From Patescibacteria group bacterium (GTDB lineage Bacteria > Patescibacteriota > WWE3 > UBA101185 > UBA10185), in the NCBI GenBank assembly GCA_018818485.1, contig JAHIRX010000045.1:1-24823 (forward strand): a stretch of DNA of 24,823 nucleotides, given 5' to 3'. The position numbers were made by a program, and so were the translations under genes. Under the pieces are notes generated by a model. The model saw only the letters and a program-made list of their open reading frames with translations, was not told the origin of the DNA and searched no databases. This document shows, piece after piece, positions 10,961-14,209 of this stretch. The stretch's first letter is position 1; each line of letters begins with the position of its first letter.

Positions 10961-10989
10961 AGTATACATAACATGAATATATCTGTCTA
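10961..10989 (-). promoter_or_regulatory. Sigma70-type promoter of uvrA
   Basis: TAGACA (10984-10989), 17 bp, TATACT (10961-10966) on the minus strand. Confidence 0.65.
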
Positions 10990-11009
10990 CGGGTTTTATT
11001 TGGGTATAG

Positions 11010-11059
11010 AAAAAAAGAAACGAGTTAAACGGTGCCGTAAAGGCTGCCGAAATAACTCG
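11010..11059 (-). terminator. Long hairpin terminator (distal of a tandem pair) downstream of the orphan membrane gene
   Basis: Minus strand CGAGTTA..CGG..GCC-TTTAC-GGC..CCG..TAACTCG followed by TTTCTTTTTTT. There is also a T7 run at 11065-11071 on the plus strand. Confidence 0.6.
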
Positions 11060-11071
11060 CATAATTTTTTT

Positions 11072-11095
11072 AAGAAATGAGAGTGGCGGCTCCCA
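11072..11095 (-). terminator. Short hairpin terminator (proximal of the tandem pair)
   Basis: Minus strand TGGGAG-CCGCCA-CTCTCA (6 bp, one G-U) followed by TTTCTT, 6 nt after the stop at 11102. Confidence 0.45.
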
Positions 11096-11101
11096 AATCT
11101 G

Positions 11102-11683
11102 TTAGGAAATCTTCCTATCGAACTTCTCACTTCCATCCAAACCGGGTATTATCACCATCAAACGAAGACTTTTCACAGCCCCGGAGTAAGGAATGGGAAA
11201 TATCTCTATCCCACCTTCAAAACCTTCAACTTTGCACGCATCAAAGGCTAGAGAATTAGCTTTTCTTAGTCTCCTGTCAAACAGAAGACTTTCTCCTGCA
11301 TACTTTTGTACTGCACGCAGAAGAAACTTTGCGGGAGAGCTCAATTTAGCACCGCGCTTTGCGGACCTGATTAAGACACCAGATTGGTAACTGATGTCCT
11401 CTTCTTTAGCTTCCTTGGCGTAGCACCGAACCCACTTTGTGTTTACTAAAAACATCCAAATGGGTCTAATAAAACTTACCACCAGTCCTAACCACGAACC
11501 TAAAAAGAACAATAAAACATAAAAGTTCTCTTCAGGTGTTTCGTTAGAAGGCCAGCCGAGAAGACCGTAATTAGATAGCGCATAAGTAGTTGCAGGCGCT
11601 GCGATTAGACTACAGATGAGAATAATATACATCCACCACCTGTCGTCATAAGCATCTCCAAACACACGTGAAAATAAAGTCAT
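11102..11683 (-). CDS. Orphan membrane protein, 193 aa (2 N-terminal TM helices plus a soluble C-terminal domain)
   Basis: SD AAGGAG 6 nt before the ATG. Hydrophobic segments WWMYIILICSLIAAPATTYAL and FYVLLFFLGSWLGLVVSFIRPIWMFLV. Flanked by its own promoter and terminators. Family not recognised. Confidence 0.75.
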   Translation of the reverse strand: MTLFSRVFGDAYDDRWWMYIILICSLIAAPATTYALSNYGLLGWPSNETPEENFYVLLFFLGSWLGLVVSFIRPIWMFLVNTKWVRCYAKEAKEEDISYQSGVLIRSAKRGAKLSSPAKFLLRAVQKYAGESLLFDRRLRKANSLAFDACKVEGFEGGIEIFPIPYSGAVKSLRLMVIIPGLDGSEKFDRKIS

Positions 11684-11912
11684 TGTTTTCTCCTTAGGGT
11701 TAAACCCTTATTTAGTTGTGTCGAGAAGGTTAAACCTTTACAGACACATTTGGAATTCTCTACGAATCATCCGCCAATGAAATCGCAGGCAATCTGAGGC
11801 TAAGTGGTTAACCCCAAGTTGCCTACGACTTCCTTTATATTTTCAATGTTCTAAATAAAATAAAGCCAGAGAGACGGCTTTTAAGCAGTACTCCTTCTAT
11901 TTAACTTTACAT
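11684..11912 (-). ncRNA. Candidate structured cis-regulatory RNA leader or sRNA of about 230 nt (no known family recognised)
   Basis: Hand-folded: 24-bp hairpin at 11779-11832 with five G-U pairs on this strand, nested hairpin at 11717-11748, hairpin at 11696-11708 next to the SD, and a terminator-like hairpin at 11862-11881. Confidence 0.55.
11853..11881 (-). terminator. Terminator-like hairpin (class A PBP terminator and/or leader attenuator)
   Basis: Minus strand AAAGCC-GTCTCTCT-GGCTTT followed by ATTTTATTT. Confidence 0.5.
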
Positions 11913-11916
11913 CGCT

Positions 11917-11945
11917 ATTATACTATAAGGTAAATATTAAGTCAA
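11917..11945 (-). promoter_or_regulatory. Near-consensus sigma70 promoter driving the leader and orphan gene
   Basis: TTGACT (11940-11945), 17 bp, TATAAT (11917-11922). The -35 overlaps the PBP stop codon. Confidence 0.7.
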
Positions 11946-14209
11946 TCGTCATCATCTTTACCCCCATCTTCATCTTCCTCTTTTTCAATACACAAAGTCT
12001 CAGGAACAAATGTTCCTTTTATGAAAACTTCAGAAACACCACATTTCTCATCATATTTTACAAAAATATCTCCAAGCTTCTCATAAACTTCATTTGGCTT
12101 TCCATCTAAAACTTCTGTCATTATTTTATTCCATATAGGCGCAGCTCCTGTTAAACCTGATGCGAGGTATCTATTCATAGGAGTACCATCGTTATTTCCA
12201 ACCCAAACACCTACTACATAAGATGGGGTATACCCCAGAGTCCAATTATCCTTTATATTATCTGTGGTTCCTGTTTTTACAGCAACCTTATAACCAGGGA
12301 TCACAAGAGAACTACCAGAACCAAAGGCTGGTGTTCTTGCCACATTATCAGAAAGAATGTGCCATATTAAATAAGAAACCTCACTACTCAAAACCTGACT
12401 ATCTTCTCTTCTATCTTTATATATCTCGTATCCTTTTGAGTCTTTCACGCTTAAGATCGGGGTTGTTTCTTTATATATCCCATTTCTAGATAAAGTCCCG
12501 AACACATTTGTGTGATCCAACAACCTTACCTCCTTACCTCCTAAGGTAACTGATAGACCATAAGAACCATCTATTTTCCAGTTTGAAAGCCCCATTTTAT
12601 GTCCAAGGTCTACAATATTATCTGGACCTACACTACTAGCGACCTTTACAGCCGGAACATTGTAAGAATTAGCTAAGGCTTGGCGCACGGTTACTTTTCC
12701 ATGAAACTTACCATCGTAATTTACTGGAGTATATGGTTTTTGACCTTCTACTTTATAGGTAATTGCAGAATCATCAATTATTGTGGCTGGCGTATAGTTT
12801 CTGCTTAAAGCTAGTGCGTATGTGACAGGTTTTATAGATGATCCAGGTTGCCTATAACCTGTTACCACATCAAAGGCTCCCCAACCCTCTTGAAAATAAT
12901 CAACTGACCCAACATAAGCTAATATTTCTGAGTTTTTTGAATCTAAAACTACCGCGGCTCCATTTGAAAAACCGAGATATGAGTTTTTCCCTACCTCTTC
13001 TTTTACAATCTCTTGAACCTTATCATGAAGTTCTAAATCTAGAGTAGTAGTAATCGTTAAATCTCCTAACTCAACAAATCTCTTACCATATTCTTTCTCA
13101 AGTAACCCTCTAACATAGATTACAAAATGAGGAGCTCTAATAAACTCTACTTGGTCAATAAAATTAAGTTCCATATCAAATGCTTCATCTACTTCCTCTT
13201 TTGAGATATATCTTGTTTCTACCATTCTATCCAGAACATATCTTTGCCTTTCTTTTGCTTTTTCAAGATCAGTAATTGGCGAGTAGCTTGTGGGTGATGA
13301 AGGAAGTCCTGCTAATAAGGTTGATTCTGCAATATTTAATTCCCAGACGTTTTTCCCGAAATATTTTTGTGCTGCTGATTGAATACCCCACGAAGTACCC
13401 CCATAAGGCACGTTGTTTAAATACATTTCTAGGATTTGTGACTTAGAGTATTTAACTTCTACAAGTAGTGCTAAAACTGCTTCTTTTATCTTCCTCGAAA
13501 CAGTTCTCTCAGGAGAAAGGAGTACATTTTTAATTAACTGCTGAGTAATTGTAGATCCCCCTTGTAAATTTCCACCAAAAAAATTGTTCTTTGCTGCCCT
13601 GATAACACTATCTAAACGAATTCCCCAGTGACTATAAAACTTATCATCCTCAACAGCAATCGTAGATTGAATAACATGAAGTGGAACTTCATCCAGACTT
13701 ATGGGATTGTATTTTTTATCTACATATATTTCATATAGTAGCTTTCCATTTCTATCCAATATTCTCGTAGAGCTTTGATTTGCTTTTGTAACAAGTGAGC
13801 CAGGTGTTGGTAGTTCTCTAAACCATCTATAAATTTCAAGAGGGGTGAATATAAAAACTACACTAATAAGTGCTCCTACAAAGTATGGCTTTAAATTTAA
13901 TATCTTAGAAAGTCTCGTCTTAAGATTACCTAGAAACACTTTCCATTTCTTCTTAATAGAAGGAATTATTTTTCTAATGTTTTTAAACCTGTCTACTTTC
14001 TTTCTGGGTACTATTTTAGTCTTTTTTTTGATCTTCTTGGACTTCTTACCCTTAATTTTCTTATTCTTTAGGGCCTTAACTGATGTAGAGATTTCTTTTT
14101 TAACAGCTTTGTAGATTTTTGGAGTGATTACAAGAATCTTCTCAAATGGAAAAATAATAATAAATCCAATATTCTTTATAAGTTTTGATACATTATTAAT
14201 AAAAGGCAT
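11942..14209 (-). CDS. Class A bifunctional penicillin-binding protein (PBP1A family)
   Basis: Glycosyltransferase motifs AVEDDKFYSHWGI, GGSTITQQLIKN, RKIKE and ILEMYLN. Transpeptidase motifs SSIK, SYN and KTGT. One TM helix after a long basic N-terminus. Confidence 0.95.
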   Translation of the reverse strand: MPFINNVSKLIKNIGFIIIFPFEKILVITPKIYKAVKKEISTSVKALKNKKIKGKKSKKIKKKTKIVPRKKVDRFKNIRKIIPSIKKKWKVFLGNLKTRLSKILNLKPYFVGALISVVFIFTPLEIYRWFRELPTPGSLVTKANQSSTRILDRNGKLLYEIYVDKKYNPISLDEVPLHVIQSTIAVEDDKFYSHWGIRLDSVIRAAKNNFFGGNLQGGSTITQQLIKNVLLSPERTVSRKIKEAVLALLVEVKYSKSQILEMYLNNVPYGGTSWGIQSAAQKYFGKNVWELNIAESTLLAGLPSSPTSYSPITDLEKAKERQRYVLDRMVETRYISKEEVDEAFDMELNFIDQVEFIRAPHFVIYVRGLLEKEYGKRFVELGDLTITTTLDLELHDKVQEIVKEEVGKNSYLGFSNGAAVVLDSKNSEILAYVGSVDYFQEGWGAFDVVTGYRQPGSSIKPVTYALALSRNYTPATIIDDSAITYKVEGQKPYTPVNYDGKFHGKVTVRQALANSYNVPAVKVASSVGPDNIVDLGHKMGLSNWKIDGSYGLSVTLGGKEVRLLDHTNVFGTLSRNGIYKETTPILSVKDSKGYEIYKDRREDSQVLSSEVSYLIWHILSDNVARTPAFGSGSSLVIPGYKVAVKTGTTDNIKDNWTLGYTPSYVVGVWVGNNDGTPMNRYLASGLTGAAPIWNKIMTEVLDGKPNEVYEKLGDIFVKYDEKCGVSEVFIKGTFVPETLCIEKEEDEDGGKDDDD

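Follow-up and report, generated by a model that had tools for sequence, protein, structure and literature searches.

Messenger RNAs of the hok type fold back on themselves by pairing between their 5' and 3' UTRs, and in the icaR mRNA of Staphylococcus aureus a 3' UTR motif is reportedly complementary to a 5' UTR motif of the same transcript, with RNase III said to be implicated. To our knowledge, almost no regulatory RNA has been characterised in CPR bacteria, whose genomes are tiny, and no genetics is available for them. BoxA-mediated control of leaders other than those of rRNA, including leaders of protein-coding genes, has been documented (PMC5725501). In phage lambda, nutL lies about 200 nt upstream of N, the RNA between the two is structured and sensitive to RNase III (PMC5725501, citing Wilson 1997 and 2002), and Nus factors assembled at the box repress translation of N from a distance (PMC5725501).

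The locus described here lies in a 24,823-nt stretch of a WWE3 genome, referred to hereafter as the window, and all of the features below are read on its minus strand. In that direction uvrB is followed by a class A PBP gene (stop at 11942), a promoter, an optional hairpin (P0), a long stem-loop (P1), three small hairpins, a Shine-Dalgarno sequence, a 193-aa ORF, two terminator-like hairpins and uvrA; lexA is divergent and adjoins uvrB. In most relatives uvrA comes directly after the PBP gene, so that the ORF and its leader constitute an extra module. The leader belongs to a family that is absent from Rfam and for which no description was found in the literature searched. It is built from element kinds that are known separately (a boxA leader, a long leader hairpin and 5'-3' UTR pairing), in an arrangement that is new.

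The sequence-only reading had proposed that P1 (11779-11832) is a 24-bp RNA hairpin made of 14 bp, a C/A 1x1 mismatch, 10 bp and a four-nucleotide CCAC loop. RNAfold applied to 11840-11770 of the minus strand returned exactly this pairing scheme, including the five G-U pairs that it had counted. The MFE was -34.4 kcal/mol, compared to a shuffle mean of -15.6 (z = -6.5, with none of 200 shuffles as good), whereas the opposite (plus) strand reached only -18.7 (z = -2.4). P1 was the longest hairpin in a scan of the whole 564-kb (0.56-Mb) assembly, in which it occurs once; 96 nt separate it from the ATG of the 193-aa ORF downstream. The runner-up in that scan (G000:C64:2838-2888; 23 bp, 6 G-U) lies in the 23S rRNA near its 5' end and is apparently a helix extension of that molecule.

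P1 does not have the form of an intrinsic terminator, a GC-rich stem with a U-tract directly after it. As had been noted from the letters, no U-tract follows the stem, on whose 3' side AUUGGCGG stands, and a terminator scan flagged other sites only. Nor does it behave as a MITE or a REP-type repeat, which would occur in many copies and in either orientation: P1 is single-copy and always sense to the downstream ORF, and so is not a repeat. Its arms (GGCAAC / AUUGCC) lack the RYYYAAC / GTTRRRY cores of integron attC sites, and no cassette arrays are found nearby. Rfam 15 gave no match in the whole window at gathering thresholds and chance-level matches only (E > 1) at permissive thresholds in 11500-12100, which agrees with the earlier suggestion of a new ncRNA motif, and a tRNA/tmRNA scan found nothing. 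By sequence P1 does qualify as a candidate RNase III substrate: its duplex is nearly continuous over more than the roughly 20 bp called for, and the genome carries rnc.

The P1 family was missed by sequence search alone and found by covariance models. The intergenic region gave only AT-rich chance matches when compared by blastn with 60 relatives. A covariance model built from the single sequence (R1) found two genomes of another genus within the same family at 42-44 bits; two rebuilt models (R2 and R3) and one degenerate pattern scan added the genomes G034, G075, G015 and G010 and the contigs L066, L091, L099 and L101. Homologues are thus available from six other genomes of the same family and four metagenome contigs, with later model scores of 68-85 bits for the core members and 23-34 bits for the outliers. 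When 134 genomes of the class were scanned, matches were confined to the family of the window, one per positive genome, and the distribution is narrow, one WWE3 family and about 7 of the 86 genomes searched. The module occupies different loci in different genera. Its orientation relative to the promoter, Shine-Dalgarno sequence and ORF is constant, and it always lies upstream of a (mostly envelope-type) protein gene. An exact 36-mer was absent from JGI metagenomes, and the IMG/VR and INPHARED phages yielded no match. Five other contigs encode the identical 193-aa protein behind an identical leader (one SNP) and contribute no covariation.

Covariation was assessed on a structure-blind MAFFT alignment of eight distinct sequences (A7). 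In this alignment 91% of cells pair and 10 of the 25 pairs show both-sided (compensatory) change; none of 500 shuffles reached the observed values, and pairing fell to 25-58% when the partner strand was slid, although these statistics rest on homologues that are few and related, and hence not independent. Across the homologues, sense-strand G-U pairs outnumber A-C pairs by 30 to 7, and two positions are conserved wobbles, which points to selection on the sense RNA. The claim of strand specificity therefore stands at the level of the family, while in the window alone five G-U against one A-C is a statistically weak argument (one-sided binomial p ~0.11). P1 is a helix kept by compensatory change as sense-strand RNA. 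The sequence-only reading had named a dispersed repeat and a lack of covariation as outcomes that would count against it; since P1 is single-copy and covarying, neither speaks against the RNA.

Conservation is uneven along the hairpin, which measures 54-65 nt with a stem of 24-26 bp across the family. Covariation is free in the apical helix. In the basal one the two strands behave differently: across the seven core members the 3' strand and the 12 nt after it (UUGCCUGCGRUUUCC-AUUGGCGGAUGG) never vary, while the 5' strand drifts, with pairing retained through wobbles. In the A7 alignment conserved 1x1 mismatches break the helix. The invariance of the 3' strand goes beyond what scaffolding alone accounts for.

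Upstream of P1, a promoter-like TTGACT-17-TATAAT (11917-11945) agrees with the consensus at 11 of 12 positions, its -35 overlapping the PBP1A stop codon, and a near-consensus promoter is found at the equivalent place in all homologous loci. In most of the homologous promoters, those of L043, L044, L049, L050, L066, L099, L101 and L115, a palindromic CTATAG stands 2-3 nt upstream of the -35; in the window it is found just upstream of the -10 instead (11923-11929). The motif is possibly an operator or UP-like element. A LexA operator shared with the lexA/uvrB region was not seen. Within the leader, P0 (11853-11881) is a terminator-like hairpin with a U-run, present in the window, G077/L091, G034 and G075 and absent from G029, L066, L099 and L101. 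It precedes the box in 4 of 11 loci, and an antitermination role for the box leaves this unexplained.

The box itself, CAUUGAAAA (11840-11848), differs by one mismatch from the 9-nt core (CUUUGAAAA) of the boxA upstream of the organism's own 23S gene, GUGUUCUUUGAAAACUGG. The consensus of the leader boxes is C(U/A/C)UUGA(A/C)AA, placed 5-7 nt before P1 in the core members. All nine leaders of nine lie within one mismatch of boxA, where the background expectation is 1.8% per 40-nt window, and leaders of relatives carry GUACUUUGAAAA, identical to the rrn box of G034. The leader box thus matches the organism's own rrn boxA, the mark by which a BoxA is recognised in sequence. The rrn loci of four relatives have the same boxA-type motif before 23S, and there the 5' strand of the 23S processing stem starts within a few nucleotides of it. 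The genome carries nusB, rho and rnc (C2:2369-2764); nusB and rnc are neighbours, encoded on one strand with about 400 nt between them (G000:C2:1602-2764). The box was also considered as the -35 of a second promoter and rejected as such, there being no consistent -10 across the homologues.

The leader resembles an rRNA operon leader or spacer in that its box matches the organism's own 23S-upstream boxA and a strand of a long duplex begins a few nucleotides after it. It differs in that the duplex is a local hairpin rather than a helix spanning 3 kb, and in that a small protein-coding ORF lies downstream. The parallel with the lambda N leader (pL, nutL boxA/boxB, an RNase III-sensitive structure, N) lies in a promoter-proximal boxA followed by hairpins in a leader of roughly 200 nt before the Shine-Dalgarno sequence; unlike lambda, the WWE3 leader has neither an N-type protein nor a 15-nt boxB, its hairpin is 54-65 nt long, it has a partner loop in the 3' UTR, and it resides in a CPR host and has no phage match. 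As in leaders of the suhB type, a BoxA stands in the 5' UTR of a protein-coding gene (PMC5725501), but the suhB box is within 50 nt of the start codon and comes with neither a long hairpin nor a 3' partner.

Two nucleotides after P1, within the block AUUGGCGGAUG, is the hexamer UGGCGG (11771-11776), invariant in the seven core members and in G010. When the invariant block was compared by short blastn with the genome and the rrn loci, to see whether it has a target in trans or in rRNA, only matches of chance length resulted. The earlier suggestion that P1 might be an antisense-targeted element found no support. We took CCUGCGGUU to resemble the 3' strand of 16S helix 45; the 3' end of 16S is absent from the assembly and the idea was dropped. 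In all seven core leaders an AUG lies directly 3' of GGCGG (window 11768-11770) and opens uORFs of 10-37 codons, of which that in L099 is in frame with the main ORF. A conserved uORF peptide was rejected, as neither lengths, frames nor peptides are conserved, and the AUG is more readily accounted for as belonging to the RNA motif than as a uORF start. Pairing of CCAU with AUGG could close a 4-bp mini-hairpin that would show UGGCGG as its loop, at the cost of two basal P1 pairs.

The remainder of the leader is less constant. P2 (11752-11772), a small hairpin seen in MFE folds, has a 5' strand that begins in the invariant GGAUG and a partner strand that is different in every homologue. P3 (11718-11747), with a GGUUUAACC core, is not conserved in the homologues. 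At 11696-11740 of the window there is a pair of 26-nt direct repeats, each with a GGUUUAACC core, spaced 30 nt apart, and a related sequence is found in the P1 apex; none of them is conserved in the homologues, and they therefore look lineage-specific. P4 (11696-11708) is a 5-bp hairpin, AGGGU-UUA-ACCCU, adjoining the Shine-Dalgarno sequence AAGGAG (11690-11695, read from the sequence), and a small hairpin just 5' of the Shine-Dalgarno is present in every homologue. AAGGAGAAAA is common to several of them.

Directly after the stop codon of the ORF lies a 3' hairpin, UGGGAG-CCGCCA-CUCUCA (11078-11095), whose loop (CCGCCA, 11084-11089) is the exact complement of the invariant UGGCGG. This hairpin, with invariant CCGCCA, was found in seven of seven core members, and its stems covary (GGGAG/CUCUC, UUGAG/CUCAA, CCAAG/CUUGG). 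In G010, where the locus is elsewhere in the genome, upstream of a lipoprotein gene, UUGGCGGA is kept and the loop reads CCGCUA, pairing being retained through G-U. In G034, UGGCGGG faces CCCGCCA. The outliers G015 and G075 have P1 and no obvious UGGCGG or motif pair. Conserved complementary motifs in the two UTRs, as in icaR, are thus present in all seven core members and compatible in G010 and G034, in a putative contact that spans only 6 bp. What is shared with icaR and hok-type mRNAs is complementarity, within one mRNA, between a short 3' UTR motif and a conserved motif in the 5' UTR. The likeness ends there: the 5' partner is not the Shine-Dalgarno sequence of the main ORF but lies about 80 nt upstream of AAGGAG, the contact is a 6-nt loop-to-strand (possibly loop-loop) one, and the 5' motif lies right beside a 24-bp hairpin and a boxA. 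The 3' hairpin is followed by a second, canonical terminator (11010-11070, inverted repeat I5; stem GCGAGUUA/UAACUCG and a U-run), for which the homologues have equivalents. Further on, upstream of uvrA, the block ACCCAAAUAAAACCCGUAGAC (window about 10985-11008) is nearly invariant in all core loci and probably holds the uvrA -35 (TAGACA) and a regulatory site.

Between these conserved ends lies a hypervariable gene. The 193-aa ORF (P0001; 11102-11683) encodes two N-terminal hydrophobic helices and a soluble domain. No homologue of it was found in 5.8 billion proteins or in 60 relatives, the ESM Atlas returned nothing usable, and the AlphaFold model was poor (pLDDT 54). The ORFs of the seven core members (168-209 aa) share the plan of two TM segments plus a soluble domain at 15-25% identity, with one pair at 39%. 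The leader, over roughly 100 nt, is conserved far better than the protein downstream. In G077 and L091, uvrB, the promoter, the box, P1 and UGGCGGAUGGAUAA are 95-100% identical, as is the stretch from the 3' hairpin into uvrA, and the intervening 590-670 nt are unalignable and encode different proteins. The same pattern of replacement was found between G029 and L099. What is exchanged is the remaining leader sequence plus the 2-TM ORF, and the sequence that takes their place codes for a different 2-TM protein. Replacement of the cassette is bounded exactly by the UGGCGG and CCGCCA motifs. Judged by these sequence comparisons, the uvrB-uvrA interval is a hypervariable replacement locus. In coordinates, the comparison of L043:1579-2251 with L091:3883-4473 (window 11102-11765) shows sequence that is unalignable from just after UGGCGGAUGG to the 3' hairpin. 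No recombinase gene was found near P1 within the window.

Transcription data cover part of the module. A groundwater metatranscriptome contig spans 11047-11640, which takes in the greater part of the ORF together with the 3' hairpin and stops within the second terminator; such contigs carry no strand information and might include DNA carry-over. A second contig lies in the PBP gene. There was no coverage of 11641-12179, P1 included, and the paired DNA run of the same study also lacks 11710-12005. The contig end at 11640 is 43 nt inside the ORF and leads straight into Illumina adapter; it could be a defined RNA end or an assembly artefact.

Taken in order, the module consists of the promoter, the boxA-like box, P1, UGGCGG, a variable part (what remains of the leader, with the hypervariable 2-TM ORF), the CCGCCA hairpin and the terminator. 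The best reading of P1 is that of a scaffold or a processing stem that acts in cis within a leader of the rrn/nut type. On balance we favour the view that the mRNA of a hypervariable small membrane protein carries a conserved cis-acting leader, that P1 is the principal helix of this leader, and that the leader belongs to a frame that communicates with the 3' UTR. The sequence-only reading was right to place a sense RNA element in the leader; it overlooked the boxA-like box just before the hairpin, the invariant UGGCGG just after it and the complementary CCGCCA loop in the 3' UTR, and the hairpin does not stand alone but is one domain of a larger 5'-3' architecture. Putative RNase III cleavage and Nus-factor binding at the leader are plausible. 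Once the promoter fires, the boxA-like box could recruit NusB/NusE, as on rRNA and phage nut leaders. P1 would fold first and insulate the box and UGGCGG from the variable sequence downstream. When the 3' hairpin has been made, its loop would pair with UGGCGG and close the mRNA 5' to 3', and the closed form might set message stability, translation or both. It might do so by shielding the ends from exonucleases; or the kissing helix might stack with the 24-26-bp P1 into a long duplex that RNase III would cut, unless the enzyme acts on P1 itself.

A simpler account makes P1 a stand-alone site of RNase III processing or decay, at which a cut would remove the 5' part of the leader with its boxA and so fix the half-life of the mRNA or activate its translation, the 3' hairpin being uninvolved. 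The stem exceeds two helical turns and rnc is present. A boxA with a long duplex close behind it is also the arrangement at the 23S rRNA flank in these genomes, and in the lambda N leader nutL is combined with an RNase III-sensitive structure (PMC5725501). However, RNase III needs little sequence, yet one strand of P1 and 12 flanking nucleotides are invariant; the helix is interrupted by conserved 1x1 mismatches; and the conserved complementary 3' loop is left unexplained. We consider this account unlikely. The same invariance, which extends over one strand and the single-stranded AUUGGCGGAUGG beside it but not over the partner strands, would suit an operator formed by P1 and its invariant 3' strand and junction, at which a conserved RNA-binding protein of the host (NusA or another Nus factor, a ribosomal protein, or some further regulator) represses or activates the gene, and the boxA-like box adjoins it. 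But no candidate protein emerged, the downstream ORFs vary too much for their products to be the binder and UGGCGG already has an RNA partner, and we hold such an operator to be quite improbable.

The boundaries of the variable cassette raise the question of action at the level of DNA, with P1 and UGGCGG/CCGCCA as recombination sites (a single-strand hairpin or inverted repeats) that exchange it. The unalignable segment does run from just after UGGCGG to the 3' hairpin between near-identical strains, and the module is found at different loci in different genera. Homologous recombination in the conserved flanks accounts for the boundaries equally well, however, and the excess of sense-strand G-U over A-C (30 to 7) with its conserved wobble positions, the constant orientation to promoter, Shine-Dalgarno and ORF, the single copy per genome, and the absence of attC-type core sites and of a recombinase gene nearby in the window all make this explanation very improbable. 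Finally, strong 5' stem-loops are known stabilisers of mRNA, and P1 starts about 30 nt from the predicted start site in four core members, so that it might only block 5'-to-3' exonuclease or 5'-end-dependent decay and have no regulatory role. It lies away from the very 5' end, though, and its sequence invariance and linked motifs exceed what a generic stabiliser needs; we regard a purely stabilising role as scarcely credible.

Returning to the leader that communicates with its 3' UTR, we put forward with some diffidence a broader proposal, which we think possible but doubtful: that the module is a new kind of modular mRNA frame. Its 5' piece (rrn-type boxA, 25-bp hairpin, UGGCGG) and its 3' piece (CCGCCA-loop hairpin, terminator) would be joined by a kissing contact and would place whichever hypervariable envelope-protein allele recombination inserts under uniform control dependent on Nus factors and RNase III. 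If this were so, the frame would serve the ultra-small genomes of CPR bacteria as a regulatory chassis around a locus that diversifies. The leader reuses the antitermination box of rRNA and appears to contact its own 3' UTR, and the element is short and amenable to heterologous reporters. Should the mechanism hold, it would offer a way into the biology of Nus factors and RNase III in CPR bacteria, an example of a constant regulatory RNA around a strain-swapped cassette, and, for WWE3 populations, a clean marker of a locus that is hypervariable and probably surface-related.
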